The position numbers and the translations under genes are program-made. The notes below the pieces were generated by a model. The model saw only the letters and a program-made list of their open reading frames with translations. It did no database searches and was not told the DNA's origin. A stretch of 64,000 nucleotides of DNA from Candidatus Omnitrophota bacterium (lineage in GTDB: Bacteria > Omnitrophota > Gorgyraeia > Velamenicoccales > JABMQK01). The DNA is taken from contig JAQTSV010000001.1 of assembly GCA_028711115.1 (NCBI GenBank), positions 70,032 to 134,031 on the forward strand, read 5' to 3'. Shown one piece after another: positions 4,142-57,946 of the stretch (position 1 is the stretch's first letter; every line of letters starts with the position of its first letter).

Positions 4142-4358
4142 AATCTTTTTCTTTGAAAGGCTTAATTTTTACATTGCCGCTTTTGTCTTTTGAGCAAATC
4201 TGGATTTTTTTCTCTGCCTTATCCAATAAATCCAGGCACTGCCTGGAAAGAAGCATGCCTTCCTGGTATATCTTAATTGCCTTATCCAAAGAAATATTTC
4301 CTGCCTCTAATTCTTGCACAATACGCTCTAATTTATGCAATGTCTCTTCAAGCTTCAT
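4122..4358 (-). CDS. xseB: exodeoxyribonuclease VII small subunit
   Basis: 78 aa helical protein (LEETLHKLERIVQELEAGNISLDKAIKIYQEG). It overlaps and follows xseA. Confidence 0.85.
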   Translation of the reverse strand: MKLEETLHKLERIVQELEAGNISLDKAIKIYQEGMLLSRQCLDLLDKAEKKIQICSKDKSGNVKIKPFKEKDYAGENK

Positions 4359-5490
4359 GTCTTATTTCCTCCACCACACTGGAAAAACTGCCTTTATGTA
4401 ATTTTGTGTTTATGTGCTCGCCTGGCCGCAAGGATTTTGTGTCCTTTAATATTTGCCGGCCGGGAAGCTTGAGTGAAATACTGTATCCCCGATTTAAAAT
4501 GTCCAGTGGATTTAATGCCTGGAGTTTGGAAATTGCCAATTCGAATTGCTGTTTTTTTCCGATGAGAATATTTTCCAGCCCGCGCCTTAATGATTCGGTC
4601 AGATCATCCACTCTTTGCTGATACGCCGGTATAAAATCCCTCAGTCCGCGATTTAGTTGCTGGATAAAATATTTTATCTTTTCGCTGAGTTCTTTTTTCT
4701 GTGGGATAACCAGTTCTGCCGCCCGTGACGGCGTAGGTGCGCGCAGGTCGCTGACAAAATCAGCAATAGTAAAATCTGTTTCATGGCCTATTGCAGAAAT
4801 TATGGGGATTTTTGAATTATATATTGCGCGCGCCACAAGCTCTTCATTAAACGCCCATAAATCCTCGATGCTTCCTCCGCCGCGCGCCAGAATTATCACG
4901 TCAACATTTCCTTGAGAATTAAAATATTCTATGGCCTGGGCTATTTCTGCCTTGGCAGATTCACCCTGGACTTTGGCAGGATATATCAATACCTGGAAAT
5001 TCTCGAACCTTTTCTCTAAAATATGCAGCATATCTCTAATCACCGCACCTGTGGGAGAAGTGATTATGCCGATAATTCCGGGTAAAAATGGCAACGGCTT
5101 TTTATGCGCAGCATCAAACAGCCCTTCTCTGGTCAGGCGTTCCTTTAACTGCTCGAATGCCAGCTGCAGACTGCCTTTGCCCTTTGGCTCGACGGAATTT
5201 ATATATAACTGGTAACAGCCATCGCGTTCATAAACGCTTAATTTCGCAAATACCACTATCTGTAGGCCGTCTTTTAATTGAAATTTAATCCCGGCTGACT
5301 GCTGCTTGAATAATACGCATCTAATCTGGGAGAATTCATCTTTTAGGGTAAAATAGATGTGACCGCTGGATGGCCTGCGTAAATTGGAAACTTCTCCCTC
5401 GACCCAGACAAGGCCGAAGGTGTTTTCCAGAATGAGCTTAATGTCTTTGGTTAGCTCGCTGACTTTGAGGATGTGTTTTTCTGCAAGCAT
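4348..5490 (-). CDS. xseA: exodeoxyribonuclease VII large subunit
   Basis: N-terminal OB-fold signature VWVEGEVSNLRRPSSGHIYFTLKD, followed by a catalytic core and C-terminal coiled region. Start is uncertain because it overlaps the upstream PilZ gene by 40 nt. Confidence 0.9.
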   Translation of the reverse strand: MLAEKHILKVSELTKDIKLILENTFGLVWVEGEVSNLRRPSSGHIYFTLKDEFSQIRCVLFKQQSAGIKFQLKDGLQIVVFAKLSVYERDGCYQLYINSVEPKGKGSLQLAFEQLKERLTREGLFDAAHKKPLPFLPGIIGIITSPTGAVIRDMLHILEKRFENFQVLIYPAKVQGESAKAEIAQAIEYFNSQGNVDVIILARGGGSIEDLWAFNEELVARAIYNSKIPIISAIGHETDFTIADFVSDLRAPTPSRAAELVIPQKKELSEKIKYFIQQLNRGLRDFIPAYQQRVDDLTESLRRGLENILIGKKQQFELAISKLQALNPLDILNRGYSISLKLPGRQILKDTKSLRPGEHINTKLHKGSFSSVVEEIRHEA

Positions 5491-5843
5491 TCTGTAACAA
5501 CCCTTTCAATCAATAATTTATCTTCTGGTTTTAAACCGATAAATTCTATCCCTGTGTCAAAAGAATTGGGCAGGTCTTTGCCTACCTGGCCCCGGCGCAC
5601 AACCCAGACCACGGTGCCGTCGCAGGATATCTTTCGCTGTTCATTTGCCGAAGCCAACTCTATCTCCACCTCGACGGGATTAAACATGCCTACATCCTTG
5701 GGGAGGATAACGCATATACCGCCGCAACCGATGTTTTCTGTCTTTGTGCGAAATGCCTCGGCGCTACCCTTACTTCTGATTCTTACTGTACAAGGATAAT
5801 TTGCGCGCGGGAAGATACGTTTATCTACGCCTTGCCAGGTCAT
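5451..5843 (-). CDS. PilZ domain protein
   Basis: 130 aa. An N-terminal R-rich KRIFPRANYP motif (RxxxR-like) and TENIGCGGICV ([DN]xSxxG-like) are consistent with a c-di-GMP-binding PilZ fold. Confidence 0.7.
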   Translation of the reverse strand: MTWQGVDKRIFPRANYPCTVRIRSKGSAEAFRTKTENIGCGGICVILPKDVGMFNPVEVEIELASANEQRKISCDGTVVWVVRRGQVGKDLPNSFDTGIEFIGLKPEDKLLIERVVTECLQKNTSSKSAS

Positions 5844-5899
5844 ATGTTTCTCCTTTCGCTCAATTCAAAAATGAATACTAAAATATCTTTAATGTTTTA

Positions 5900-6682
5900 T
5901 TACAGCTTCTCGCTTACTCTTTCTATGGAAATGCCTTTGCCGGTTTTTTCATCAATCTCTACGATAACTCCCTGGAGTCTTATATCTTCCGTGCCCAATT
6001 CAAACCTGATAGGCATACCCGTAAGAAACCTTTCAATTATTTTTTCTTTTTTGCGTCCGATAACAGAATCAAAGGGGCCTGCCATACCCACGTCTGTAAT
6101 ATAGGCGGTGCCTTTGGGCAGGATTTTTTCGTCTGCTGTCTGCACATGTGTATGTGTGCCCAACACACAGGAAACTTCGCCGTCTAAAAACCAGCCCATG
6201 GCGATTTTCTCCGAAGTGGCTTCTGCGTGAAGGTCCACGACAATAATATTTGTCTCTTTTTTTAAGTCGGGCAGTATATTGCGCATTACCGCAAAGGGAG
6301 ATTCTGTTAAGGCGTCAATAAAAACGCGGCCCAACAAACACACAACTCCTACCGCGATGTTTGATTCTGTTTTATATACGTTATATCCTCTGCCCACAGA
6401 TGAACTCGGCAGATTCAAAGGCCTTAACAGCCGCGGATTTGACTTAAGCACTTCCAACACTTCTTCTCTGCGCCAGATGTGGTCCCCGGAAGTCAGGACA
6501 TCGCATCCGGAATTAAATAAATCATTGGCCACGCGCGAAGTTATACCTGTGCCGCCGGCAGAATTCTCTGCATTGGCGATAACAAAATCCACTGCCTTGT
6601 CCTTTTTTATTCTCGGCAATATCTGGCGCACAGCATCCCTGCCAGGCGAACCTACTACATCACCAATAAATAATATTTTCAT
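5900..6682 (-). CDS. ymdB: YmdB-family metallophosphoesterase (2',3'-cyclic-nucleotide phosphodiesterase-like)
   Basis: MKILFIGDVVGSPGR...NAENSAGG...GDH metallophosphoesterase motifs. Located immediately downstream of rny, as in Bacillus. Confidence 0.85.
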   Translation of the reverse strand: MKILFIGDVVGSPGRDAVRQILPRIKKDKAVDFVIANAENSAGGTGITSRVANDLFNSGCDVLTSGDHIWRREEVLEVLKSNPRLLRPLNLPSSSVGRGYNVYKTESNIAVGVVCLLGRVFIDALTESPFAVMRNILPDLKKETNIIVVDLHAEATSEKIAMGWFLDGEVSCVLGTHTHVQTADEKILPKGTAYITDVGMAGPFDSVIGRKKEKIIERFLTGMPIRFELGTEDIRLQGVIVEIDEKTGKGISIERVSEKL

Positions 6683-6768
6683 AATCTCTCTTTCGTTATA
6701 ACGTTGTGTATTTTTGTATTACAACGTTAACGCAAAAACCCTATAATCATATAAACGCTATAACGCGT

Positions 6769-8343
6769 TTATTTTGCGTATTCAATAGCCCTGGTCTCTC
6801 TGATTACCGTTACTTTGACCTGACCGGGATATTCCATTCCCTCTTCAATCTTTTTCTTTATCTCTCTTGCCAGGACAATGCTGTCTGCATCGGATATTTT
6901 ATCCGGCAGGACAATAACTCTTATTTCTCTTCCCGCCTGAATAGCAAATGCCTTATCCACGCCTTTGAATAATGTGGCTATGGATTCAAGTTTCTCCAAT
7001 CTCTTTATGTATGTCTCCAGAGTTTCTCGTCGGGCTCCTGGACGGGAAGCGCTTATGGCATCAGCGGCAATAGCTAATACGCCATAAAGGCTTGAAGATT
7101 CTGTCTCTTCATGGTGCGCACCGATGGCCTTAACCACAATTTCACTTTCGCCATATTTTTTGGCTAAGTCTGCGCCCAAAGAAGCGTGTGTGCCTTCTGT
7201 CTGCTGGTCTATAGCCTTACCGATATCGTGCAATATGCCTATGCGACGGCCTATCTTGGAATCCAGCCCCAGTTGTATAGCCAGCTCGCCCATAAGCAGC
7301 GATACCTCTTTGGAATGCTGTAAAACATTTTGTCCGTAACTGGTCCTGTATTTAAGCCTGCCAATTAATCTCACCAGCTCCGGATGCATATTATGCATGC
7401 CTACATCAAACAGCGCCTTTTCGCCTTCCTCTTTTATCTTGACTTCCATATCGCGTTTTGTCTTTTCTATTACCTCTTCAATGCGGCCGGGATGAATTCT
7501 GCCGTCGCTTATCAGACGCTCCAGGGCAATGCGGGCGATTTCTCTTCGCACAGTATCAAACCCCGACAAAGTCACGGCCTCCGGCGTATCATCAATAATC
7601 ACATCCACGCCCGTAGCCATTTCCAAAGCGCGGATATTGCGGCCTTCCCTGCCGATAATGCGGCCCTTCATCTCCTCGTTGGGAAGATTGACCACGCTCA
7701 CAGTTGTCTCTACCGTCTGCTCGACGGCGCAGCGTTGTATCGCGGTAGTCACAATCTCCCTAGCCTTTTTATCTGCATTATCTTTTACCTCGTCCTCCAT
7801 GCGCCTGATTAAAACAGCTTTTTCCTGGTTCAGTTCCTGTTCCAAACGGGAAAGTAAAAGTATCTTTGCCTCTTCAGGCGTCATAGATGAGATTTTTTGC
7901 AATCTCTCTTTTTCTTCCAGAACTAATTTTTCCAAATACTTCTCCTTGTTCCTCATTGATTCTTCTCTCTGGAATAAGGCCTTATTTCTGTCTTCCATCT
8001 CGCGTTCTTTTTTCTCTAAAAGGCCAACTCTTCTTTCCAGGTTCTCTTCTTTCTGCACCATACGCTTCTCAATGACGTTTAACTCTTCCTTGCGACCACG
8101 CGTATCTCTTTCAAATTCCTGCCGCATCTTAAACAGAGAATCCTTGGCCTCCAGCTGGGCATCTTTCCTCATTGCCTCAACTTTTTTATTGGCATCTTCC
8201 AAAATCTGCTTTGCCATCATCTTGGAATTCTCAAGATTTTTCTCTGCCAACACCCTTCTTACTACTCCTATAAAATATGCAACCAATGCTCCTATGAGCA
8301 TAAAAACTAATGCTATGGTAATGAAACTCAAACTGATTGTCAT
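6769..8343 (-). CDS. rny: ribonuclease Y
   Basis: N-terminal TM helix, long coiled coil, KH domain ([15 protein letters not shown]) and HD domain (ILHDIGK). Confidence 0.95.
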
Positions 8344-8423
8344 GACTTCCTCCTTAAAATAATACAGTCATCGTATGAAGTTATTTTGCTTAACCTGTGC
8401 TTCGTATTGACTGCTGCTGAAAA

Positions 8424-8987
8424 TTAAGCATGCAATACTTTGTCGACGGGGAAATCGTGAGACTCAAGGGACGGAATCCTGCCCAAGACCTGAAAATCAA
8501 AGGCAAGACCTATGGAAGGAATTTCTTTGGGTAGTGAATGTAAAAACCTGTCGTAATAGCCTAATCCTCTGCCTATACGATTACCGTGCAGATCAAAAGC
8601 AACTCCCGGCACAATAATCAGATCTATTTTATCCAAGGCTACATTGCGCATATGTTTTTTCTTGGGTTGGCGTATGCCGTAAGGCCCAAGCTCCAAATTA
8701 TATCCGCAATCAGAAATCAAAGATGGTATAAGTCTCTTATTACGACTATTAATCACAGGTAATGCTACTTTTTTACCCAAAGACATCGTCTTTTGTATCA
8801 TCCTGAAAGTCTCTACTTCACCGCCGAACGACAAATAAAAAAGAATCATCTTCGCCTTTATAAATTCCGGCAAAGAAAAAAGTTTGTTTTGGATTTTGAA
8901 ACTCCGTTTAAGCTGCTCTACCTCCTTCTGTTTTTTTAATCTCTTAAGCAACTGCGAGCGTATGTAGTTTTTTGTTCTTTTAATCAT
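8424..8987 (-). CDS. 5-formyltetrahydrofolate cyclo-ligase
   Basis: 187 aa. Carries the C-terminal family signature VPGVAFDLHGNRIGRGLGYYDRFL. Confidence 0.85.
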   Translation of the reverse strand: MIKRTKNYIRSQLLKRLKKQKEVEQLKRSFKIQNKLFSLPEFIKAKMILFYLSFGGEVETFRMIQKTMSLGKKVALPVINSRNKRLIPSLISDCGYNLELGPYGIRQPKKKHMRNVALDKIDLIIVPGVAFDLHGNRIGRGLGYYDRFLHSLPKEIPSIGLAFDFQVLGRIPSLESHDFPVDKVLHA

Positions 8988-9382
8988 TTGTTAGTCTGCT
9001 TTTTCTTGTAATCCTCAATGGCTGCGCGTAATGCCTCTTCGGCAAGCACCGAACAGTGCAATTTAATCTTCGGTAAACCCCCCAATGCCTCGACCACAGC
9101 CTTGTTGGAAACCTCTAATGCCTCGTCAATGGTTTTACCTTTCACCAAATCCGTAACCATGCTGGAAGTGGCAATGGCTGCGCCACAACCAAAAGTCTTA
9201 AATTTTGCATCAGTAATTCTTCCGTCTTTAACTTTAATATAAAGCCGCATTACATCGCCACATATGGGATTGCCGACATTGCCGATACCGTCGGCGTCGG
9301 GAATCTCGCCCACATTGTGCGGATGGCTAAAGTGCTCCAATACCTTCTGACTATACTGTATATTTTCCGGTGTCTCTGGCAT
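8984..9382 (-). CDS. Fe-S cluster assembly scaffold, NifU/IscU N-terminal type
   Basis: Conserved cysteines in GNPICGD, FGCGAAIA and LHCS. 132 aa. Confidence 0.9.
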   Translation of the reverse strand: MPETPENIQYSQKVLEHFSHPHNVGEIPDADGIGNVGNPICGDVMRLYIKVKDGRITDAKFKTFGCGAAIATSSMVTDLVKGKTIDEALEVSNKAVVEALGGLPKIKLHCSVLAEEALRAAIEDYKKKQTNK

Positions 9383-9466
9383 AATAATCTTTCTTAATTA
9401 AAATAACAAATATTGCCCTTTATGTCAATCTTTTGAATATCCGCATACCGGCCACAAGCAAACCAA

Positions 9467-10120
9467 TTAATTTTTTGCCGGCGCAATGTGCGGTTTTAAA
9501 GATTTTTTATAATCCCGCGTCTTGATTACGCTCTTTAAATCACCGGTTTTATTCTTCTGCGTCTTGGCCTTATAAATCAATATCCAGGCGCAATCTTTGG
9601 TTCTGTCCACTTCGCACTTGCCGTCTTTCTGGCCGCCGCAAGGGCCGTTTAAAATACCTTTGGCACAGCGTGTAACCGGGCAGATGCCTTCTGTCAATTC
9701 CAAAATGCAATCGCCGCAGGCTGAGCAGACTTCTGTAAAATTACCCTGGCTGTCCACGCTGGCAGCAAACAGCGTGTCATTACCGGAATAAACATCCAAA
9801 TTCATACGGTCGTTTTCTTTGAAACTCTGCGTGCCGGAACCGCAGGAAAAAACCAAAACCGCTTCGGCCTGGCTGAGCGCCTGCCTGTTTTTCGCCATGG
9901 CTGTCTTTACCTGGCTGGAGATACAGGCTGATTCGGGAACCACCCAGCCCGTAACAGACTTGCCGGCCTCTTCTAATTTTTTCTTCATCTCTAAAATCTC
10001 TTCTTCGCCGCCGGTCTTACAAGTCGTGGCACACTCGCCGCAACCCACCAAAAAAACCTTGCTTTTGCCTTTTAATAAATTCAGGATAAAATTAAAATCT
10101 TTTTGTTTTGTGAATATCAT
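9467..10120 (-). CDS. methylenetetrahydrofolate reductase C-terminal-domain (MetV-like) Cys-rich protein
   Basis: 217 aa, cysteine-rich. The GILNGPCGG motif and multiple CxxC pairs are typical of the MTHFR_C zinc/Fe-S domain. Confidence 0.65.
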   Translation of the reverse strand: MIFTKQKDFNFILNLLKGKSKVFLVGCGECATTCKTGGEEEILEMKKKLEEAGKSVTGWVVPESACISSQVKTAMAKNRQALSQAEAVLVFSCGSGTQSFKENDRMNLDVYSGNDTLFAASVDSQGNFTEVCSACGDCILELTEGICPVTRCAKGILNGPCGGQKDGKCEVDRTKDCAWILIYKAKTQKNKTGDLKSVIKTRDYKKSLKPHIAPAKN

Positions 10121-10122
10121 GA

Positions 10123-11469
10123 TTAGTCCTTTGCATCTGCCTTACTATTATAAAGCAAATTCAGTCTTTCTTTAATCTTTTTTTCATACCCGATATCCTG
10201 GGGTGTATAGAAGTATATTTTGCGCTTTGTGTATTTTTGGTCTACAAAATGCCCCGGATAATCATGCGCATATTTATAATCTTTGCCTCTGCCTAACTTT
10301 TCCGCGCCTTTATATGAGGCGTCCTTTAAATGCTTGGGCACTTCCTGCACGCGCTCGGTCTCTATTTCCTGTATTGCCTTCTCAATGCCTAAATACGCGG
10401 CATTTGACTTTGGCGCACAAGCAATATAAACCGTTGCCTGTGCCAGCGGAATGCGCGCCTCAGGCATTCCCACAAAATCAGCGACGGAGAAAGCAGCTTC
10501 GGCTAAAACTACCGCCATGGGATCAGCATTGCCCACATCTTCTGACGCGCAGATACAAATTCTGCGCGCAATAAAACGCGGGTCTTCGCCAGCGCTAAGC
10601 ATCTTTGCCAGCCAGTAGAGCGCAGCGTCGGGATCAGAGCCGCGCATGGATTTTATAAACGCGGAAATCGTATCGTAGTGTTCGTCTTCGTCGCGGTCAT
10701 AACGTAAAGCCTTTTTCTGTATTGATTCCTGGGCCACTTCCAAATCAAAATGGATAATTCCGTCTTTGGCGGGTTTTGTCGTCTCAATACCAATCTCCAA
10801 AGCATTCAATGCCCTGCGCGCATCGCCTTCGCAGCTACCCGCCAGAAATTCCAATGCCTTATCATCAAATTTTATTTTCAGTTTACCAAAACCTGATGCC
10901 TGATTTTTTAAACTATTTTGCAAAATTTCCTTAATATCTTCTTTCTTCAGCGGCTGTAGTTCAAAAACCAAAGAGCGCGAAAGTAAAGGCGAGGTAAGAT
11001 AAAAAAACGGATTGTGCACAGTCGCCCCGATTAAAATAAAGCTTCCTTCCTCCAGGCCAGGCATCAACACATCCTGCTGCGCTTTATTAAAACGGTGAAT
11101 CTCGTCGATAAAAATAATGGTGCGCTCGCCTGTGCTGGATTTTCTAAAATTGGCTTTTTCAATTACCTTTCTTAATTCCTCGACTCCGGATGCCACGGCA
11201 TTGATGCGTTCGAAATGTGCCTTGGTTTTATTGGCCACAATGTGGGCAATGGTAGTTTTGCCTGTGCCAGGCGGCCCGTATAATATTAGAGAAGAAATCC
11301 TGTCTGCCTCAATTGCACGGCGCAACAGCTTGCCTTTTCCTATAATATGCCTCTGGCCCACAAAATCTTCCAGTGTCTGTGGACGCATGCGCACAGAAAG
11401 AGGCGAATCCGTAATTTTTGTCTTCTCTTGCGTAAATAAATCCATAAAATCTGAGTTTGGAGGATACAA
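10123..11469 (-). CDS. rarA: replication-associated recombination protein A (AAA+ ATPase)
   Basis: Walker A LYGPPGTGKTT, Walker B IIFIDEIHRFNK, and a MgsA C-terminal region. Confidence 0.9.
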   Translation of the reverse strand: MYPPNSDFMDLFTQEKTKITDSPLSVRMRPQTLEDFVGQRHIIGKGKLLRRAIEADRISSLILYGPPGTGKTTIAHIVANKTKAHFERINAVASGVEELRKVIEKANFRKSSTGERTIIFIDEIHRFNKAQQDVLMPGLEEGSFILIGATVHNPFFYLTSPLLSRSLVFELQPLKKEDIKEILQNSLKNQASGFGKLKIKFDDKALEFLAGSCEGDARRALNALEIGIETTKPAKDGIIHFDLEVAQESIQKKALRYDRDEDEHYDTISAFIKSMRGSDPDAALYWLAKMLSAGEDPRFIARRICICASEDVGNADPMAVVLAEAAFSVADFVGMPEARIPLAQATVYIACAPKSNAAYLGIEKAIQEIETERVQEVPKHLKDASYKGAEKLGRGKDYKYAHDYPGHFVDQKYTKRKIYFYTPQDIGYEKKIKERLNLLYNSKADAKD

Positions 11470-11649: not shown

Positions 11650-11806
11650 AAAAAAAACCCCGCTTTGTGCCGTTGGTTTAGATGCTCTGAACCTGTTAGT
11701 TTTAGGTGGGTGCTCTATCCTATTAATCTCGATTAATAGAAATCCAAAGCTCCCGTTAATTTGTTGTTGGTTCAACAATCACCACGCGCCAACGGACACT
11801 GCAGGG
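11650..11806 (-). ncRNA. candidate structured RNA of unknown class (or rarA 5' leader) ending in a U8 tract
   Basis: Lies in a 407-bp ORF-free gap between pheT and rarA. On the minus strand, CCCTGCAGTGTCCGTTGG can pair with CCAACGGCACAAAGCGGGG just before TTTTTTTT. This stem encloses hairpins TTGTTG-AAC-CAACAA and CTATTAATC-GAG-GATTAATAG. No known family was recognised by eye. Confidence 0.3.
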
Positions 11807-11876
11807 CTTATGTAAGAACTCTCATATCTGAAACCAATTGTAGCACACAAAACCCTGCCATGCAAGAAACAAATTT

Positions 11877-13919
11877 TTAGCGTATCTGTACGGCTAATTC
11901 TTTGTTTAACCGCCTGGTAATGCGCTGCTGCAAATCGCCTGCCTCTTCGTCTTTTAACGTGCGGTCTGCCAGGGCAAATTCCAAAGAAATAGTCAGGCCG
12001 ATACAGCCGGCAGCAATCTGCTCGCCTTTATATTTATCGATTAATTTGACGGCCTTAAGATATTCTCCTGCCTCCTGCCTGATTACATCCACAATCTCTT
12101 CGTATTGGACGGAGCTCTTTACAATTAAACTCATATCCCTGATTATGGAAGGAAACACCGGTAGGGGCATAAATTTTTTCTTATCTTTCCTGCATTGGTA
12201 TAAATCTTTTATAAAAATCTCGGTGTAAAACACCGGAGAGGGATTTTTGATGCCGAAATTTGACAATACACGGTTATCTATCCGTCCCTGAATACCAACT
12301 TCTCTACCCTGACAAACAATTTTGGCTGCCTCGCCCTGGGAAAACAAATTATTGCCTTCGCTGGCTATAAATTTAACCTCGCCAAAGCCCATGCGGCTGA
12401 TAAAATTCTCGATATCGCCTTTCAGGGAAAAAATATCGAATTCTTTTTTTATCTGCCAGCTGTCCACAAGTTTTCCAGTAGCAATCAAACCCAAACAAAG
12501 ATCTTCGCTGTAATCGCCGGTAAAAACATGCCCCAGTTCAAATAATTTTAAGTCCGTATTTTTGTGGTTTAAATTATAGGCCAGGCAATTCAGGAGTCCT
12601 GCGACAAGCCCGGGCCTTAAGCATTCCTGCTCGCTGCTCAAGGGATTTTCCAATCTTACGGCATCTTGGCCTGAGCAACTGGACTCTATCATATCTTTAC
12701 TGATAAGGCTGTAATTTATGGTCTCGTTAAAACCCAGAGCGCATAAAAGTCCGCGCATCTCGGGCTTTAGCATTTCTACGGGAGAATTTTCTATTCTGGC
12801 AGAACGTATGGCCGGCGCAGTAGAGGCAATCTTATCGTAGCCGTAGATACGGCTGAGCTCTTCGCTTAAATCTTCCTCGATTTTAATATCGCGCCGCAGC
12901 GCAGGAATTCTTACCGACAAAATATCTTTGGTAAGTTTTTTGCAGGAAAATCCCAAAGAGGTAAAAATTTGTTTTATCTTGTCGGTGCTTATATCCAAAC
13001 AAAGAAAATTGTTTGCCTTGGCGCAATCAAACCTGATTTGCTGGCTTGGAGAGGATAATTTTTTGCCTTCTGTCTTTTCATCAACGAATTTTCCGCCGGC
13101 AATCTCACAGATTAAATCTATGGCCCTGTTTTGCGCCTGGATTACTCTTGCAAAATCCACCTGGCGCTCAAAACGATACGATGAATCCGTGGATACTCCC
13201 AATTGGCGCGAAGCCCGTCGGATAAGCAGAGGCTGGAAATAAGCGCTCTCCAGCAAAATATTTTTGGTTTGGGGACTTACTTCGCTGAGCTTATCCCCCA
13301 TAATTCCGGCAATGGCTATGGCTTTATTTTTATCGCTTATAACTAAGATATTTTCATCTAATTTTCTCTCCACGCCGTCGATATTGAGGATCTTCTCGCC
13401 TTTTTTTGCCCGGCGCACAACAATCTGTTCTGTAATCTTATTGTAATCAAAGGCATGCAAGGGCTGGCCGTATTCCAAAAGGCAGTAATTGGTAATATCT
13501 ACGATATTATTCACGGAGCGCATACCCAAAGACTCGACTCTCTGGCGCAACCACTGCGGAGACTGCCCGACTTTGACATCCACAATCAAACAGCCGCGGT
13601 AAAACGCGCAATCTTTTTTGTTTTGTATACTGATAAAATCGGATTTTAAATATTTTTTTGATTTGTTTGGCCGCGGTTTTACTTTAGGGCTGGGGATTTT
13701 TAATCTGGAATTCGTAATGGCTGCAGCTTCCTGGGCAATGCCCAAAATACTCAGGCAATCTGATCTATTGGCGGTAACTTCCGCCTCAAATACCACGTCA
13801 TTATTATCTTGATGCCAGGAGCCGACCTCAAGTCCGGCCATTGTAAGTTTCTCAGCCAAAACTTTCGGGCTTACTTTAATTTGAACGTAATCTTTTAACC
13901 AGTTATAGGAAAATTTCAT
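11877..13919 (-). CDS. pheT: phenylalanine--tRNA ligase beta subunit (short form, lacks the N-terminal tRNA-binding OB insert)
   Basis: MKFSYNWLKDYV start, B3/4, B5 and C-terminal FDX-ACB-like regions. 680 aa. Confidence 0.9.
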   Translation of the reverse strand: MKFSYNWLKDYVQIKVSPKVLAEKLTMAGLEVGSWHQDNNDVVFEAEVTANRSDCLSILGIAQEAAAITNSRLKIPSPKVKPRPNKSKKYLKSDFISIQNKKDCAFYRGCLIVDVKVGQSPQWLRQRVESLGMRSVNNIVDITNYCLLEYGQPLHAFDYNKITEQIVVRRAKKGEKILNIDGVERKLDENILVISDKNKAIAIAGIMGDKLSEVSPQTKNILLESAYFQPLLIRRASRQLGVSTDSSYRFERQVDFARVIQAQNRAIDLICEIAGGKFVDEKTEGKKLSSPSQQIRFDCAKANNFLCLDISTDKIKQIFTSLGFSCKKLTKDILSVRIPALRRDIKIEEDLSEELSRIYGYDKIASTAPAIRSARIENSPVEMLKPEMRGLLCALGFNETINYSLISKDMIESSCSGQDAVRLENPLSSEQECLRPGLVAGLLNCLAYNLNHKNTDLKLFELGHVFTGDYSEDLCLGLIATGKLVDSWQIKKEFDIFSLKGDIENFISRMGFGEVKFIASEGNNLFSQGEAAKIVCQGREVGIQGRIDNRVLSNFGIKNPSPVFYTEIFIKDLYQCRKDKKKFMPLPVFPSIIRDMSLIVKSSVQYEEIVDVIRQEAGEYLKAVKLIDKYKGEQIAAGCIGLTISLEFALADRTLKDEEAGDLQQRITRRLNKELAVQIR

Positions 13920-26818: not shown

Positions 26819-28405
26819 TTATGCTTTTTGTACTCTGGGTATAAACATCCAAACCTGAAAAACCAGCATTAGTATACTATTCACCGCCCAGTACAATACC
26901 AATCCCGACGGCATATGGTAGAATATTACGCCAAAGAATACAGCCATAAACAAACCCATCATCTTTTGTTGCCGCGCAGCTTCTGTGCTGGCTGACTGGC
27001 TCTTTCCGCTGGTTAGCTTTTGCTGTATGAACATAGTAATTATCATTATTATGGGTAAAAGATTTAAGTCACTGCCTATCACAGGGATGGCCTTGGGAAG
27101 CACCGCCAGCCTGTCTGGTTCTGATAGGTCCTTTATCCATAAAAATCCAGCGCCTTTTAATTCTATAAAGCGCATAAGCAATTGGTACAGCGCCACGAAA
27201 ATAGGCATCTGCAGCAATAAAGGCAGACACCCCCCCAGGGGGTTAATCTTCTTTTCCTTATATAGCTCCATAATCTCTTTATGCATCTTTTGCGGGCTGT
27301 CTTTATATTTAACCTTTAATTCCTCTATTAAAGGTTGCAATTCCTGCATCCTCTTCATAGAAGAAAAACTCTTTATGCTCAAAGGCGACATCAGCACAAA
27401 CACAAGCACGCTGAACAAAATGATGGTCAGCCCCCAGTTTTTGCTTACTTTGTGCAGGATTTTAAGGGCGCCTAAGAGAATATGGGATACTGAATCGAAC
27501 ATGCCAAAATTGATTATGTTTTCGGCATTGTCTCCTAGTTTTGCAATAAGATCCGGCTCCTGTGGTCCCAAATAAATCTTATAGGTATGTTTGATTGTCT
27601 GGCCTGGCTGTAACTCAAAAGTTGGCGATTCCAAAATATAGCTTGTGATGTTGTTGTGAGTGTCTTTTGTAAGTTGACCGGCTTCTTGCAATGGTTTTAT
27701 AATAGTGCAAAAATATCTGTCGCGGATGCCTATCCATTGTATTTTTTCATCCACAGTTTTGGGATTGAATCTCAAGAAATTATTTCTTAACGTTTTGTTG
27801 GGCAGCGAGACAGAGAGGTCTATGTATCTTGCATCCATAGAATTCTGCTTCAGAATTTCATCTTTAATAGAGCCTACATTGAAACCATATTTAACATATC
27901 TGTTTGTGTTGGAAGAATTTACGAACTCAACAGTCATCTCGACAATATATTTATCTTTTGTAAAACGATACTCTTTTTTGATGCCCAGCCCGGTATTTTT
28001 ATCGTCATAACTCATTGTTGCGCCATCGGTTAAATCTGACTTGGTAAAATCTTTTTTCTGCCAGTCAATCAAAAGGCCGATGTTTTTCTGAGGCAAAATT
28101 GTATTGTAACTCTTGATATTGCAATTAGTTATGGCTGAACCGCGCAGGTTTATATCCAATCCTAAATCCGCATTCTGCACATTTTTCAGCACTTGTTTTT
28201 CAGTATCTATAGCTGCCACTACTGGTTCGGCCTGGGAGGACGCGACTTCTGCTTTGGTTTCATAAGATACTGAGGTAGCAGGGGATTGTTGGGTTAATTC
28301 TGGCTGTGGTATGGGCTGCTGAGGCATAAAGCGGGGCACAATGCTAGAATATACCATAAGTATAACGATAGAGATAAAAATAGCTAGGAACAGACGTTTT
28401 TCCAT
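26819..28405 (-). CDS. yidC: membrane protein insertase YidC
   Basis: N-terminal TM helix, large periplasmic domain, and a C-terminal 5-TM Oxa1 core (GCLPLLLQMPIFVALY). Confidence 0.95.
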   Translation of the reverse strand: MEKRLFLAIFISIVILMVYSSIVPRFMPQQPIPQPELTQQSPATSVSYETKAEVASSQAEPVVAAIDTEKQVLKNVQNADLGLDINLRGSAITNCNIKSYNTILPQKNIGLLIDWQKKDFTKSDLTDGATMSYDDKNTGLGIKKEYRFTKDKYIVEMTVEFVNSSNTNRYVKYGFNVGSIKDEILKQNSMDARYIDLSVSLPNKTLRNNFLRFNPKTVDEKIQWIGIRDRYFCTIIKPLQEAGQLTKDTHNNITSYILESPTFELQPGQTIKHTYKIYLGPQEPDLIAKLGDNAENIINFGMFDSVSHILLGALKILHKVSKNWGLTIILFSVLVFVLMSPLSIKSFSSMKRMQELQPLIEELKVKYKDSPQKMHKEIMELYKEKKINPLGGCLPLLLQMPIFVALYQLLMRFIELKGAGFLWIKDLSEPDRLAVLPKAIPVIGSDLNLLPIIMIITMFIQQKLTSGKSQSASTEAARQQKMMGLFMAVFFGVIFYHMPSGLVLYWAVNSILMLVFQVWMFIPRVQKA

Positions 28406-34477: not shown

Positions 34478-34715
34478 AAATAAGTTTTGATTTTGCGCCC
34501 AACATACAATCATAACGTTTTTATCCGCCTTCGTTAAAACTTCGGCGAGATTTTTCTGAAACTTTAACAAAGGAGAACTTCGGCGGATGTCACCGATGAA
34601 CAAGCCCAAAGCAAGTCGGCGGATAACCCCGCCTTTTGCATTCTGCAAGAATGTGGCGGGGTAAATAAAGGTACCACGGGTTTGCCCGTGATGTTCCATT
34701 TTAAGCGAGGAGAAG

Positions 34716-37163
34716 ATGTATACACAGAATGAAAGAATAGTCCCCATTGGTATTGAAGAGGAAATGAAGAGTTCTTATATCTCTTACGCCATGAGCGTAA
34801 TTGTAGGCAGGGCATTGCCGGATATAAGAGACGGTCTAAAGCCTGTGCACCGCCGGATACTTTATGCCATGCATGAACTAAATCTCGAGCACAGCAATCC
34901 CTATAAAAAGTCTGCGCGTATCGTCGGTGAGGTTTTGGGTAAATACCATCCGCACGGCGACGTCGCTGTTTATGATGCTTTGGTGAGAATGGTGCAGGAT
35001 TTTTCTTTGCGTTATCCTCTGATAGACGGCCAGGGAAACTTCGGTTCCGTTGATGGCGATGCGCCGGCAGCCATGCGTTATACAGAGGCGCGCCTGGCCC
35101 GCGTCAGCGACGAGATGCTGCGCGATATCGAAAAAGAAACGGTAAATTTCAGCCCCAATTTCGATGCCTCATTAAATGAACCGGTATTACTGCCCGCAGT
35201 GTTGCCAAATTTGCTGGTCAATGGTTCCGGCGGTATTGCCGTGGGTATGGCCACCAATATCCCGCCGCATAATTTATCCGAAGTTATAGACGGCATCGTA
35301 TATTTAATTGATAATCCGGAAGCGCAGACCAAAGACCTGATGCATTATATAAAAGGCCCGGATTTTCCCACCGGCGGAATTATCTGCGGCAGGACAGGAA
35401 TCAAAGAGGCCTTTGATACAGGTAAAGGCAAGATAATGCTGCGCGCCAAGGTGAATATTGAGCATCAGAAGTCCGGCAAAGACTGGATAGTGGTTACGGA
35501 AATTCCTTATCAGGTAAATAAAGCCAATCTCATAGAGACCATTGCCAATTTAGTCACGGACAAAAAGATCGACGGCATTACCGATATCCGCGATGAATCC
35601 GACAAAGACGGTATGCGCATTGTCCTGGAATTGCGCCGTGAAGTCGAACCGCAGATAGTCTTGAACTTCCTGTATAAACATACGCAGCTGGAAGTTACCT
35701 ACGGGATAATCACGCTGGCCCTGGTGAATGGCCGGCCGCGCATATTGAGCCTTAAAGAAGTAATGCAGTATTATATCGAGCACCGCAAAGATATTATCCG
35801 TCGCAGGACACGTTTTGATTTAGACCGCGCCCAGAAACGCGCGCATATTCTGGAAGGATTAAAGATTGCCTTAAAGCATCTAGACCAGATTATAAAGACC
35901 ATCCGTTCCTCTAAAAATGCCGTGGAGGCCAAAGATGCGCTGGTCAAGAAATTTGATTTAAGCCCGGAGCAGGCGCAGGCAATTCTAGAAATGCAATTAC
36001 AGCGGCTAACTGCTTTGGAGCGCGATAAAATAGAAGCCGAATACCTGGATTTGATAAAAAAGATTGAATTATATAAATCCATTTTGGCATCGGAGAAAAA
36101 GATAGAAGGCATTATCAAGGAAGAGCTGGCAGAGCTCAAAAAGAAATACGGCGACGAAAGAAAAACGGAAATCATCGGCGAGGTGGAAGATATCGAAATC
36201 GAGGATTTAATCGCCGAGGAAGATATGGTGGTTACTATAAGCAGCGGCGGTTATATCAAACGTCTTTCTGTGAGCGCCTACCGCAAACAGCGGCGCGGCG
36301 GCAAAGGCGTTACCGCCATGGAGACCAAAGAAGAGGATTTTGTAAAACATCTGTTTGTGGCCTCCACAAAAGATTATCTTTTGATTTTCAGCAACCAGGG
36401 AAGAGTCTACTGGCTTAAGGTTTATGAGATTCCCGCGGCAGGACGCCAGGCAAAAGGCAAGGCCATTGTAAATATTTTGGCTATGGGCCAGGGTGAAGAT
36501 ATAAGTTCTGTTATTGCCGTCAAAGAATTTACCGAAGGCAAATTTCTGGTGATGTGCACAAAACAGGGTTTGGTTAAAAAGACAGACCTCCCGGCATTCA
36601 GCAATCCGCGTAAAGGCGGGATTATCGGCATAACCCTGGAGAAAGACGACGCCCTGATTAACACCGCCTTGACCGACGGAGACCAGGAGATTCTTTTGGC
36701 TGCGCGTTCCGGCAAATCCGTAAGATTTAAGGAGAAACAAGTGCGCGATATGGGCCGCCAGGCAAAAGGCGTGCGCGGAATATCGCTGGCCAAAAAAGAC
36801 GAAGTTATCGGTATGGCCATTGTGTCTACCTCAATGAATAAAAGCCCGACTACTTTATTAACCGTAACCGCCGGCGGTTTTGCCAAGAGGACGTCTCTGG
36901 CAGATTACCGCATACAATCGCGCGGCGGCAAAGGCATTATCAACATAAAGACCACCAAGAAAAACGGCGAGGCCATCGGCGTAATGGTCATAGAGCCGCA
37001 GGATGAAATTATGGTGGTTACGCAAAAAGGAATGATTGTGCGCTGCGCAGTCAAGGATATCCGCCAGACTGGCAGAAACACCCAAGGCGTGCGCCTGATA
37101 AATTTAGATAAAGCCGATGCCGCGGCATCCGTGGCAAGAGTTGTGGCCAAGGACGAAGAATAA
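34716..37163 (+). CDS. gyrA: DNA gyrase subunit A
   Basis: Active-site region [16 protein letters not shown], and C-terminal beta-pinwheel repeats. Confidence 0.97.
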
Positions 37164-37173
37164 ATTTGCATAA

Positions 37174-37288
37174 GCCCCCATCGTCTAGCCTGGTCTAGGA
37201 CACGAGCTTTTTCCCGCCGTCGTCCCGCCGCAGGCGGGACTTTGGCGGGATCCCGCAAAGCACGAAGTGCGCATGCGGGACAAGCTTG
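37174..37288 (+). pseudogene. interrupted partial copy of tRNA-Glu (5' 38 nt + 69-nt insert + 8 nt of anticodon loop/stem)
   Basis: 37173-37211 is identical (39/39) to 37536-37574 of the intact tRNA-Glu. After the insert, CAAGCTTG (37281-37288) continues the tRNA sequence. No variable loop, T-arm or acceptor 3' strand follows. Confidence 0.85.
37212..37280 (+). repeat. GC-rich double-hairpin element X1 (inserted in anticodon loop of the partial tRNA-Glu copy)
   Basis: Layout: TCCCGCC-GTCG-[TCCCGCC GCA GGCGGGA]-CTTT-GGCGGGA-[TCCCGC..18 nt..GCGGGA]. Termini TCCCGC / GCGGGA are inverted repeats. Confidence 0.8.
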
Positions 37289-37294
37289 AGATAA

Positions 37295-37561
37295 ATGTAT
37301 TACGTATATGTTTTGAAAAATAATGAAGGTAAGCATTATATAGGTAGTTGCGTAGATTTAGAAACGAGATTAAAAAAACACAATCAGAATAGCGTTAGGT
37401 CCACAAAGCACAAAGGTCCTTTTAAAGTAGTTCATAAAGAAAAATTTGATAGCAGGACTGAAGCGCGGCAGCGAGAGAATCAGCTCAAGAACTATAAAGG
37501 CGGCAGAGCATTTAGGAAACTTATAGAAGAGTTGCAGCCCCCATCGTCTAGCCTGGTCTAG
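37295..37561 (+). CDS. small GIY-YIG (URI-domain) nuclease family protein
   Basis: 88 aa. MYYVYVLKNNEGKHYIGSCVDLETRLKKHN...EARQRENQLKNYKGG carries the GIY/YIG motifs and the conserved Arg/Glu/Asn pattern of COG2827-type proteins. The last 8 codons and the TAG stop lie inside tRNA-Glu. Confidence 0.85.
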   Translation: MYYVYVLKNNEGKHYIGSCVDLETRLKKHNQNSVRSTKHKGPFKVVHKEKFDSRTEARQRENQLKNYKGGRAFRKLIEELQPPSSSLV

Positions 37562-37611
37562 GACACGAGCTTTTCAAGCTTGCGACACCGGTTCGAATCC
37601 GGTTGGGGGCG
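37537..37611 (+). tRNA. tRNA-Glu (anticodon TTC), intact
   Basis: GCCCCCA-TC-GTC..GAC-A-CGAGC-TTTTCAA-GCTTG-CGAC-ACCGG-TTCGAAT-CCGGT-TGGGGGC-G. No encoded CCA. Confidence 0.92.
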
Positions 37612-37617
37612 AAATGT

Positions 37618-37721
37618 AACGGTTCTCCCGCATGTGTCCGCCACTACTACAATGGCGGACTTTTGCGGGATCTCGCCACCTGTAGTTCTAATTATTGTGG
37701 CGGGAGAATCCGGTTGGGGCG
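37618..37721 (+). repeat. second T-arm/acceptor-3'-strand copy of tRNA-Glu, split in the T-loop by element X2 (37626-37705)
   Basis: AACGGTTC | X2 | GAATCCGGTTGGGGCG compares with tRNA CACCGGTTCGAATCCGGTTGGGGGCG. X2 layout: TCCCGCA-TGTG-[TCCGCC..11 nt..GGCGGA]-CTTT-TGCGGGA-[TCTCGCCAC..17 nt..GTGGCGGGA]. Its layout is homologous to X1. Confidence 0.8.
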
Positions 37722-37742
37722 TTTTTAATTTAAGGAGGGATT

Positions 37743-38144
37743 ATGCAGGAACGCAGAAAATATCCCCGTTTTGATGTGGCGGCCAGGGTTGATTTCAAAA
37801 AGATAAACCAGAACAACAATTCCCAGGGTGCGTTTGTAAAAAATGTCAGCGCCGAAGGTTTTTGCTTTGCCTGCCAGGAGGCGTTTAGTCCCGGCGATGT
37901 ATTAGAGGTCAACATAATAGAGAAGAGTATTGACAGCGAGCCCATCTGCGTCAAGGGCGAGGTGGTCTGGTCTTACAAAGACCCGGCAGCCAAAGACAGC
38001 AAAGAAAAGTATTCTTTCCTTATAGGAATAAAAGTTTTAGGTATCCGCAAAACCGACGAGGCGAGGTTCGTTATGCTGTATTGCGAAAGAATGCTTGCCG
38101 AGTTAAAGAGTTTTTTACGCATATCGCACAACCCCATCGCCTAA
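37743..38144 (+). CDS. PilZ domain protein
   Basis: QERRKYPRFDV (RxxxR) and VKNVSAEGFCF (DxSxxG-like). 133 aa. AGGAGGG RBS upstream. Confidence 0.8.
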   Translation: MQERRKYPRFDVAARVDFKKINQNNNSQGAFVKNVSAEGFCFACQEAFSPGDVLEVNIIEKSIDSEPICVKGEVVWSYKDPAAKDSKEKYSFLIGIKVLGIRKTDEARFVMLYCERMLAELKSFLRISHNPIA

Positions 38145-57797: not shown

Positions 57798-57803
57798 AAT
57801 TTT

Positions 57804-57875
57804 GCGCCTGTAGCGTAACGGATAGCGCACTAGCCTCCGGAGCTAGGTGTGGCAGTTCGATTCTGCCCGGGCGCA
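57804..57875 (+). tRNA. tRNA-Arg (anticodon CCG)
   Basis: GCGCCTG-TA-GCGT..GCGC-A-CTAGC-CTCCGGA-GCTAG-GTGT-GGCAG-TTCGATT-CTGCC-CGGGCGC-A. Confidence 0.9.
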
Positions 57876-57884
57876 TAAATTAAA

Positions 57885-57946
57885 ACAGGTTTCCGCCGTA
57901 GGCGGATCCGCCTAATCTTTGTGGCGGACGATTCCTGTCAGGCGCA
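57885..57946 (+). repeat. second T-arm/acceptor-3'-strand unit after tRNA-Arg, split in the T-loop by double-hairpin element X3 (57892-57928)
   Basis: ACAGG-TT | [TCCGCC GTA GGCGGA][TCCGCC TAATCTTTGT GGCGGA] | CGATT-CCTGT-CAGGCGC-A. Same layout as the unit after tRNA-Glu. Confidence 0.75.

Follow-up and report, generated by a model that had tools for sequence, protein, structure and literature searches.

The 64-kilobase (kb) stretch of a Candidatus Omnitrophota genome analysed here (contig JAQTSV010000001.1; hereafter the window, whose positions are used throughout, with tRNA sites given as canonical positions or as nucleotides (nt) of the gene) contains, between gyrA and a PilZ gene, an intact tRNA-Glu(UUC) gene flanked by two truncated fragments, or stubs, of the same tRNA. 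Each stub is interrupted by a G+C-rich insert, X1 upstream and X2 downstream, and an open reading frame (ORF) for a GIY-YIG nuclease of the UPF0213 type lies between X1 and the live gene. A third and shorter insert, X3, is found elsewhere in the window in a diverged 3' stub of tRNA-Arg, next to an intact tRNA-Arg(CCG) (Table 1). Together with related loci in other Omnitrophota and in Patescibacteria, or the candidate phyla radiation (CPR), these features lead us to conclude with high confidence that there is a conserved family of double-hairpin elements in dead tRNA stubs beside rebuilt genes. The element is a palindrome of two palindromes, with TCCCGCC/GGCGGGA stems and free loops.

Table 1. 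Features of the tRNA-Glu and tRNA-Arg loci and of the CPR repeat copies (window positions unless a locus, L, is named).
Feature	Position	Strand	Basis
gyrA stop	37163		
Upstream tRNA-Glu(UUC) stub, gene nt 1-38 (canonical 1-35)	37174-37211	+	Identical to live copy; 39-nt exact direct repeat D1 with 37536-37574
X1, double-hairpin element	37212-37280	.	Folds; covariance model 46 bits, E = 1.6e-7 (score partly circular); orthologous copies in L045, L047
Inner 8-nt continuation of upstream stub, CAAGCTTG, tRNA-Glu gene nt 39-46	37281-37288	+	End of tRNA homology
6 nt between upstream stub (CAAGCTTG) and GIY-YIG ORF			
GIY-YIG nuclease ORF, 88 amino acids, UPF0213 type, catalytic domain only	37295-37561	+	Pfam PF01541, PDB 1zg2
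Intact live tRNA-Glu(UUC)	37537-37611	+	ARAGORN; Rfam tRNA 59.5 bits
8-nt AT-rich filler AAATGTAA, live tRNA-Glu to downstream stub	37612-37619	+	
Inner 6 nt of downstream tRNA-Glu stub, CGGTTC (T-stem/T-loop to C56)	37620-37625	+	
X2, double-hairpin element	37626-37705	.	Folds; covariance model 27.7 bits, E = 7e-4; Logan contigs L002-L004
Outer part of downstream stub, tRNA-Glu 3' end GAATCCGGTTGGGGCG, one G short versus live copy	37706-37721	+	14-nt exact repeat D3 with 37595-37608
PilZ gene	starts 37743		
Intact tRNA-Arg(CCG)	57803-57876	+	ARAGORN; Rfam
Inner 7 nt of diverged tRNA-Arg 3' stub, ACAGGTT (T-stem 5' strand, T54, T55)	57885-57891	+	
X3, short double hairpin in T-loop of tRNA-Arg stub	57892-57928	.	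DNA fold z = -4.4
Outer part of tRNA-Arg stub, CGATTCCTGTCAGGCGCA	57929-57946	+	
CPR repeat copies with element	L008 228-281; L008 4974-5027; L016 6560-6613; L020 3641-3694		

The tRNA-Glu sequence is contiguous across both inserts. Gene nt 1-38 precede X1 and nt 39-46 follow it, placing X1 between the second and third anticodon bases (canonical 35/36), and X2 is located between C56 and G57 of the T-loop, with CGGTTC before and GAATCCGGTTGGGG after it. The upstream stub terminates at nt 46 and the downstream stub begins at about nt 53, with one G missing. X1 (69 nt) folds into two adjacent hairpins, A (37212-37250), with stem TCCCGCC/GGCGGGA and an inner extension stem, and B (37251-37280), with stem TCCCGCA/TGCGGGA. 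X2 (80 nt) does the same, with hairpin A (37626-37670) formed by TCCCGCA/TGCGGGA and an inner stem, and hairpin B (37671-37705) by TCTCGCCAC/GTGGCGGGA. The fold energy of X1 is -48.9 kcal/mol as RNA (z = -6.0, equalled by 0 of 200 shuffles) and -29.5 kcal/mol as DNA (z = -5.6), and that of X2 is -44.6 kcal/mol as RNA (z = -8.1; z = -7.6 as DNA); no shuffle matched the native energy of either insert. Both begin with TCCCGC, end with GCGGGA and share the segment ...GGACTTT(T/G)GCGGGATC(C/T)CGC (repeat D2).

A covariance model, R1, served as a search tool only, the inner extension stem of hairpin A having been removed by hand from three rows of its alignment (A3). Made without X2, the model recovers X2 at E = 7e-4, and X1 and X2 are its sole significant matches in the window. 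Folds, repeat D2 and the model thus agree with the original prediction, drawn from the letters of the window, which had X1 and X2 as homologous, structured inserts placed exactly in an anticodon loop and a T-loop. Its coordinates and sequences for both inserts are exact, its common start, common end and shared CTTT are borne out, and deleting the inserts does rejoin contiguous tRNA sequence at X1 and X2. Its two hairpins stand, whereas the closing helix that it drew around them is the anticodon stem or the T-stem of the tRNA itself. Hairpin B of X1 and hairpin A of X2 share TCCCGCA stems, and hairpin A of X1 and hairpin B of X2 are of the TCCCGCC type; site-specific recombination between X1 and X2 was considered for this reason and rejected, since tRNA sequence contiguous across each element would be an unlikely by-product.

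The contigs compared are metagenome-assembled, and the short-read Logan contigs break within the repeated 5' half of the tRNA, which might point to chance similarity or to a chimeric assembly of repeated tRNA sequence in the metagenome-assembled genome (MAG). We regard this explanation as negligible. X2 and its flanks are base-for-base identical in three independent Logan assemblies and are thus no assembly artefact; the same architecture recurs in at least 12 contigs from different studies; and fold z-scores of -6 to -8, with covariance-model E-values as low as 1e-14, argue against chance.

X3 (37 nt) has the form TCCGCC-GTA-GGCGGA followed by TCCGCC-TAATCTTTGT-GGCGGA. It is assigned to the family by context and architecture, its score with R1 being marginal (match 57891-57928, 12.8 bits, E = 0.64). 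X3 lies between T55 and C56 of the tRNA-Arg stub, which starts 8 nt past the intact gene. The T-stem of this stub, ACAGG/CCTGT, pairs across X3 and differs from that of the live tRNA-Arg, GGCAG/CTGCC. X3 therefore entered contiguous tRNA sequence, and the live tRNA-Arg is a different allele from the stub. Hairpins with X3-like TCCGCC stems are also present in L045 (~10330-10351) and L054 (~9345-9359). A lone hairpin in the gyrB-gyrA spacer of the window (34627-34661; CCCCGCC..GGCGGGG) resembles one arm of the family and may be a terminator; with a model E of ~8 it was excluded as a member.

Family copies beyond the window were found by exact-core scans with a 20-nt core, by the covariance model, and by inspecting the surroundings of GIY-YIG homologues, which were chosen irrespective of the element; around each relative's locus ~10 kb was examined. 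In all, 31 copies of 37-85 nt are distributed across Omnitrophota and Patescibacteria/CPR loci. The scan of GTDB representative genomes with the 20-nt core returned mostly chance matches in GC-rich genomes and seven true copies in two CPR genomes. The chance matches (Bradyrhizobium and others) fall in coding sequence and have no hairpin arms, and the single viral-contig match is of the same type. Two identical copies lie on a 20-kb CPR contig (JAGVPA010000037.1; L008), and one Uhrbacteria MAG carries four copies over three contigs. The metagenome scan added two orthologous Omnitrophota loci (L045, L047), further CPR copies and a palindromic copy in an ORF. The density of the element is three copies in the 64-kb window and 2-5 copies per 8-20-kb locus in relatives.

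The canonical 54-nt form in CPR reads TCCCGCC-GTCGTAGGACTTT-GGCGGGA followed by TCCCGCC-AAAAGCCACTGTC-GGCGGGA, and it has terminal inverted repeats. Hairpin 2 is an imperfect reverse complement of hairpin 1 (perfect in L049), so that the element can also fold as a single long hairpin. Such a near-palindrome scores on both strands, and its polarity relative to the tRNA strand, which if fixed would favour routes through single-stranded DNA or RNA, is not assignable. Among 56 hairpins from 28 elements, the closing stem TCCCGCC/GGCGGGA is found in 32, and two-sided compensatory variants occur as CCCCGCC/GGCGGGG (seven times), TCCCGCA/TGCGGGA (four times) and, once each, TCCCGCT/AGCGGGA, TCCCACC/GGTGGGA and TCCCGAC/GTCGGGA. 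In an alignment fitted to the model and including both strands, 99.3% of cells pair and 5 of 13 pairs show two-sided changes, a result that none of 500 shuffles reached and that a slid control did not approach. The arms therefore covary with pairing kept, as the original prediction had it. The loops vary in length and sequence, indels included, even between orthologous copies. Stems that are kept while loops are free, even among orthologues, show that the pairing is under selection, and likewise much of the stem sequence; both the DNA and the RNA level would fit.

The element is not confined to tRNAs, as near-identical 54-nt copies are present in CPR intergenic repeats. The repeat concerned, AATCCTT/TAATC..AATC..GGTTCAGACA, often lies just 5' of a start codon and carries the element at an identical point in four copies (Table 1); an empty version of the repeat is found in L018 (~4290-4335). 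The repeat itself may be a promoter, a 5' UTR or a different repeat. The perfectly palindromic 54-nt copy in L049 (410-463) is located inside the coding frame of a DUF559-like (Vsr-type endonuclease) protein. As this copy can be read through in two of the three frames, it might be tolerated as an 18-codon insertion. The hairpins can also be separated. In the tRNA-Tyr downstream stub of L019 (4474-4549) one hairpin is in the D-loop and the other in the anticodon loop, both inverted, while in the orthologous tRNA-Tyr stub of L061 the two are adjacent, and the hairpin units may thus move or split independently. Other GC-rich inserts are not of the TCCCGCC type: one is in the T-loop of a tRNA-Ser stub of L057 (~6560-6680) and one at 35/36 of a tRNA-Thr(UGU) stub of L061 (~6715-6755). 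A degenerate single hairpin (~4550-4620) is found in the D-arm of a tRNA-Thr(GGU) stub of L061. More than one hairpin family may have this role.

Within tRNA genes, the sites are as follows. In tRNA-Glu the element is at 35/36 in seven Omnitrophota loci, at 56/57 of the T-loop in the window and L054, and in the D-arm in L054. The remaining sites are the T-loop of tRNA-Arg in the window, 30/31 of tRNA-Thr(GGU) in the upstream stub of L019 and the downstream stub of L059, 35/36 of tRNA-Thr(UGU) in Patescibacteria, 34/35 of tRNA-Tyr in L019 and L061, and the D-loop of tRNA-Ser, twice in L057 and once in L058. The loci ascertained through GIY-YIG homologues all show the same theme, with a GC-rich hairpin insert, usually of the TCCCGCC family, in every stub with a remaining stem-loop. 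In the Omnitrophota loci L052, L054, L055 and L056 the order, 5' to 3', is a tRNA-Glu stub carrying the element at 35/36, a GIY-YIG gene and an intact tRNA-Glu. At L052 a further tRNA-Glu stub, covering nt 22-76, follows the live gene and holds another element at 35/36. Because this locus has overlapping stubs to the left and right of the live gene, both with the element at 35/36, we rejected simple tandem duplication, or a cassette entering an old gene, as the sole explanation. The upstream stub of L054 has elements in both the D-arm and the anticodon. Its tRNA-Glu is followed by two tandem units of filler, T-arm, element (56/57) and tRNA 3' end (10312-10537; start-to-start spacing 113 nt), and this locus also holds a degenerate remnant. 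A tRNA-Glu 3' fragment lacking an element and a fragment of anticodon arm plus element are found 1.9 kb downstream (12131-12268), and the tRNA-Glu fragments of L054 bracket a DinD/Bro-like gene and a helix-turn-helix gene in an island-like manner. In Patescibacteria (L019, L057, L058, L059, L061) the stubs derive from tRNA-Thr(GGU), Thr(UGU), Tyr, Ser(UGA) and Ser(CGA), and lie 5' or 3' of the live gene, with or without a GIY-YIG gene.

The geometry of the stubs is regular. Those that keep the tRNA 5' end sit upstream of the live tRNA and those that keep the 3' end sit downstream. The same tRNA is found complete 8-360 nt away, and this live gene adjoining each stub is the empty site. The tail of the stub past the element, on the live-gene side, measures 2-16 nt in 10 of 11 independent events (31 nt in the other), which a simulation with uniform breakpoints gives with P ~1e-4. 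The orthologous Thr-Tyr-Thr tRNA cluster varies among L019, L059 and L061. As with the T-stem of tRNA-Arg in the window, the stub and the live copy differ as alleles in the acceptor stem of L052.

The stubs bear directly on the question of whether the inserts are intervening sequences removed by a novel bacterial route, either a new intron class or an RNase III-type excision with religation. Such a proposal would account for the exact loop positions and for the contiguous tRNA that deletion leaves behind, and one copy (L048 6470-6523) does interrupt an otherwise complete tRNA-like gene. Yet 30 of 31 hosts are truncated stubs that would give no tRNA even if spliced, the same tRNA is present in intact form within 8-360 nt, and the element occurs outside RNA genes too. 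When the inserts were removed in silico and the products examined with ARAGORN, a junction-spanning tRNA appeared in only one case out of 31, which was not X1, X2 or X3. The exception in L048 is an odd 77-nt 'tRNA-Ser(UGA)' with a short variable arm, whose 11.7-kb contig has no intact copy; we read it as either a dispensable tRNA that was hit and is not yet rebuilt, or an exceptional case. At the X1 and X2 junctions the predicted fold joins the tRNA stem to both hairpins in a three-way junction, and it lacks the 4-bp helix between 3-nt bulges that makes a bulge-helix-bulge. Rfam searches over 37100-37800, at the gathering threshold and at E <= 10, return only the live tRNA and noise (Pyrobaculum sRNA 204, 18 bits), with no intron or ribozyme match. 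We therefore consider an intervening sequence very improbable.

With these results the original prediction can be revised. It was right that the inserts are not group I or II introns, which have no Rfam match at either threshold. An intervening sequence removed from the tRNA does not survive the finding that the hosts are stubs beside intact tRNA, nor was the bulge-helix-bulge geometry that it proposed to look for at the exon-insert junctions present in the predicted fold. Among its three options, a miniature non-autonomous palindromic element fits best: the copies that it looked for beyond the window were found in Omnitrophota relatives and in a second phylum, Patescibacteria, in tRNA loops and elsewhere. 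The option of att-site remnants is retained as a minority rival only. Absent from it altogether were the partial tRNA duplication, the GIY-YIG gene, and the tight spacing of insert, stub end and ORF start.

The 88-amino-acid ORF matches Pfam PF01541 (E = 1e-16) and PDB 1zg2, 'UPF0213 protein BH0048' (E = 1.4e-8), its nearest solved relatives being the stand-alone UPF0213 proteins 1zg2 and 1ywl; the NCBIfam model for group I intron endonucleases gives only 29.7 bits against a cut-off of 56. The GIY-YIG ORFs of the related loci encode 80-92 amino acids, with the catalytic domain filling residues 1-67. The ATG, 14 nt past X1 in the window, is 12-18 nt past the end of the element in 9 of 10 loci, which represent three independent tRNA contexts. 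The ORF lacks a stop codon of its own in 13 of 13 loci, where it either runs 10-38 nt into the tRNA or ends 3-6 nt short of it; in the window the stop codon lies 25 nt into the live tRNA-Glu, which overlaps the last 25 nt of the ORF. This fusion to tRNA +1 in 13 of 13 loci covers five tRNAs, namely Glu, Thr, Tyr and two Ser. The gene stands beside a tRNA with flanking tRNA stubs, and its presence varies at the orthologous Thr-Tyr-Thr cluster. It is worth noting that RNase P cutting of the downstream tRNA would turn the GIY-YIG transcript into a non-stop mRNA, and that gene callers annotate the tRNA-encoded tail of the ORF as protein.

The short distance to the GIY-YIG start codon (12-18 nt in 9 of 10 loci) could also mean that the hairpins are a selected RNA or DNA structure, acting as a 5' stem-loop that stabilises or regulates the GIY-YIG mRNA or as an insulator against processing, charging or recombination of the tRNA fragments. 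The hairpins are indeed very stable, their stems persist while the GIY-YIG proteins are only 60-75% identical, and every stub with a remaining stem-loop has one. However, three GIY-YIG genes have no upstream element, and many elements (X2, X3, those of downstream stubs and the CPR intergenic copies) have no downstream gene. Near-identical 54-nt copies in unrelated contexts of two phyla indicate spread rather than local selection, and conservation of the stem sequence beyond pairing points to a trans-acting DNA- or RNA-binding partner. On this evidence a purely local structural role appears improbable.

Based on the above data, we propose that X1, X2 and X3 belong to one conserved family of double-hairpin DNA elements, mobile and non-autonomous, with a strong preference for the D-, anticodon- and T-loops of tRNA genes, and that the tRNA is then rebuilt by repair. 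We put the probability of this statement as a whole at roughly 55%. The repair cycle, with a break beside the element and one-ended repair, is offered tentatively. The element would land in a tRNA loop and destroy that copy of the gene, and the DNA would break close by, on one side and typically at a distance of 6-16 bp. An intact tRNA would then be copied in during repair, the template being a sister, ectopic or foreign sequence; one break end would find tRNA homology, and the other would be joined without it. What remained would be a stub composed of the outer portion of the tRNA, the element and a short tail on the inner side. This stub would be upstream if the tRNA 5' end were kept and downstream if the 3' end were kept. 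One-ended, synthesis-dependent repair from a heterologous donor would give exactly two products: a stub (1-p), a few nt, a GIY-YIG gene and a tRNA; or a tRNA, a few nt of donor flank and a stub (q-76). The stub and the live copy could differ as alleles because the repair template would not be identical. The template would often carry a stand-alone UPF0213 GIY-YIG gene fused to tRNA +1, copied along in a homing-like manner. A precedent for the recombination step is the GIY-YIG homing endonuclease SegB, which cuts in a phage tRNA cluster, where break and recombination lead to tandem tRNA amplification (PMC13096335). In the window, an older tRNA-Glu would have been hit in its anticodon loop and T-loop, with its ends now bracketing the GIY-YIG gene and the live tRNA-Glu, and an older tRNA-Arg would have been hit in its T-loop. 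Genomes would retain those loci in which the tRNA was rebuilt beside the hit copy.

Several points weigh against this proposal. In the ~10-kb neighbourhoods there is no transposase, recombinase or reverse transcriptase beside any copy, and the 31 copies show no target-site duplication and no conserved flanking motif, and they thus give no pointer to any known chemistry of transposition. Where an essential tRNA is present in one copy only, an insertion should kill the cell unless the gene is restored, and the model therefore has to assume that a second copy is available for a time, through a sister chromosome, polyploidy or incoming DNA. Selection against long direct repeats could be the reason for the short inner stubs instead. 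The window holds just three copies, and the pair counts come from the fitted, two-strand alignment described above. As to the nuclease, the 80-92-amino-acid ORFs have no C-terminal DNA-binding domain, the element is absent upstream in 3 of 8 GIY-YIG contexts, and several elements, among them X3 and the CPR intergenic copies, have no GIY-YIG gene nearby.

The same loci can also be described as the product of tiny integrative cassettes that enter a tRNA loop with a replacement tRNA segment, the element being their end or an att-like site. One type would consist of the element, a short tRNA tail, the GIY-YIG gene and a tRNA 5' part, and its mirror of a tRNA 3' part, filler, a tail and the element; integration would be site-specific or Campbell-type, perhaps at a site that acts as a folded hairpin, as integron attC and CTX-phage attP do. 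The anatomy of the window, L052, L054, L019, L059 and L061 can be written exactly in this way, with the inner tail of 2-16 nt simply part of the cassette, and the anticodon loop and T-loop are classic integrase sublocations. In L054 the two tandem mirror units (spacing 113 nt) and the 3' fragment without element 1.9 kb away bracket foreign genes, as in an island. However, no integrase or recombinase is found in or beside any unit, the GIY-YIG gene being the sole ORF. The inner tail ACAGG of X3 pairs with the outer, supposedly host, T-stem strand CCTGT and not with the live tRNA, and the acceptor stems of L052 sort otherwise than predicted. The duplication in L057 takes in 33-40 nt 5' of the tRNA rather than the tRNA alone, and intergenic repeats and one ORF hold the 54-nt element alone, with no duplication of its flanks. 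We thus judge cassettes of this kind to be unlikely.

Tyrosine-integrase islands deserve a closer comparison. Williams (2002) is said to have found that they prefer the anticodon-loop and T-loop sublocations of tRNA genes. The islands and the loci described here share these sublocations, and in both the tRNA is regenerated while a displaced partial copy is left as a direct repeat. The islands are kilobases long, whereas the units here measure 100-400 bp, and between the direct tRNA repeats there is no tyrosine or serine recombinase but only the GIY-YIG gene and the live tRNA, or 8-23 nt of filler. Unlike in the islands, a structured palindrome is placed exactly at the junction, and displaced pieces are found 5' as well as 3'. 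The core sites of integron attC (RYYYAAC/GTTRRRY) are not found, the ends being TCCCGCC and GGCGGGA, and there is no integrase among the called neighbours in the local neighbourhoods.

Returning to the mobile element with repair of the tRNA, its two components may be more closely connected. If the GIY-YIG protein is involved, it probably reads structure rather than sequence, and as a matter of speculation the cruciform-prone element is a candidate substrate. The hairpin and the UPF0213 GIY-YIG protein would then be a two-part homing system on tRNA genes, in which the hairpin is recognised by the bare nuclease, the cut falls about one helical turn away, and survival is possible only via the GIY-YIG-tRNA template. 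We consider this extension rather unlikely, though not remote. The loci resemble those of SegB-type and fungal free-standing endonucleases, since the GIY-YIG gene abuts tRNA genes (SegB of phage T4/T6; PMC13096335). With SegB-type enzymes, double-strand breaks in tRNA DNA and recombination give tandem or partial tRNA duplications, and with free-standing homing endonucleases a replacement segment keeps the invaded gene functional while the displaced piece becomes a pseudogene fragment, as proposed here. SegB and I-TevI have a DNA-binding domain, whereas the UPF0213 protein of these loci consists of the catalytic domain alone (80-92 amino acids), with putative cleavage activity; and unlike here, no hairpin element lies in the displaced fragments of SegB systems. 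In fungal mitochondria, free-standing endonuclease ORFs reportedly duplicate the end of the gene that they invade (Paquin and co-workers, PNAS, 1994).

Short, multi-copy, hairpin-forming and non-autonomous repeats are well known in bacteria, as exemplified by REP/BIME with RAYT, IS200/IS605-derived PATEs, Rickettsia palindromic elements (RPEs), and Correia/NEMIS miniature inverted-repeat transposable elements (MITEs). RPEs insert in frame into genes, and the L049 copy may do likewise. MITEs have a target-site duplication, unlike the 31 copies here, and IS200/IS605 elements a fixed 5' tetra- or pentanucleotide, whereas the left flanks here vary (…CTTTT, …GGTTC, …ATATC, …GTCGAA, …TCCTT). The GTAG-type head of REP is lacking, and no RAYT or TnpA is encoded in the local neighbourhood of any copy. 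IS91-type targeting was considered in view of GTTC beside X2 and CTTG beside X1 and rejected, as these motifs are not found at other sites. To our knowledge, loop-specific tRNA targeting with stub formation has not been described for bacterial palindromic repeat families.

The closest named kind, by architecture, is the group formed by the mitochondrial double-hairpin elements (DHEs) of Allomyces (Paquin, Laforest and Lang 2000, as cited in PMC2800124), the yeast mitochondrial GC clusters (PMC4478555) and the repetitive hairpin elements of sponges (PMC2800124). The members of this group, like the element here, are short (~26-85 nt) G+C-rich inserts in an A+T-richer genome, with two adjacent stem-loops, conserved stems and variable loops. 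They too are dispersed over intergenic regions, RNA genes and ORFs, usually with no clear target-site duplication, and encode no enzyme, their mobilisation being unexplained. Their hairpin units merge and split, which may be compared with the split hairpins of L019. This likeness is architectural; the yeast GC42 sequence printed in PMC4478555 has no TCCCGCC/GGCGGGA stems. The mitochondrial elements are organellar, whereas the element here is found in free-living or episymbiotic bacteria (Omnitrophota, Patescibacteria), and the preference for three tRNA loops, the partial tRNA duplication and the UPF0213 link do not figure in the accounts of mitochondrial elements given in PMC2800124 and PMC4478555. 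Neither such elements nor tRNA stubs linked to GIY-YIG genes turned up in full-text literature searches on bacteria or CPR. We regard the element as a bacterial form of the double-hairpin kind, with tRNA-loop targeting, tied to tRNA rebuilding and to a UPF0213 nuclease gene.

As regards the wider setting of the locus, it lies ~10 kb from dnaA, and the sign of the GC skew switches at ~27000-28000, beside the rpmH-yidD-yidC/dnaA-dnaN-gyrB-gyrA cluster, which marks the replication origin region. A 6S RNA gene is present at 11653-11810 on the minus strand (Rfam, 67 bits). The gyrB and gyrA genes of the window have no intein, unlike those of its relative L052, where both are interrupted (2314-9874; Pfam Intein_splicing and LAGLIDADG_3, HNH_3 being faint only).

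Few bacterial genes are as conserved, or as seldom interrupted, as those for transfer RNAs. In two phyla of ultra-small and little-understood bacteria we nevertheless find the same scar repeatedly, consisting of a dead gene end with a palindrome, a rebuilt gene and a tiny nuclease gene. Annotation needs care at such loci, given that tRNA finders miss the stubs and gene callers run the nuclease ORF into the tRNA. If our reading is right, bacteria have their own equivalent of the mitochondrial double-hairpin and GC-cluster elements, which have long lacked an explanation, and mechanism and enzymes may be easier to trace here; the element would also offer a handle on the function of UPF0213 GIY-YIG proteins and suggest a way in which DNA may pass between distant genomes by tRNA homology only. 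Should the two-part homing system prove true, it would provide a first biological role for the widespread UPF0213/YhbQ-like family, and an example of a mobile element that crosses phyla by tRNA homology alone.

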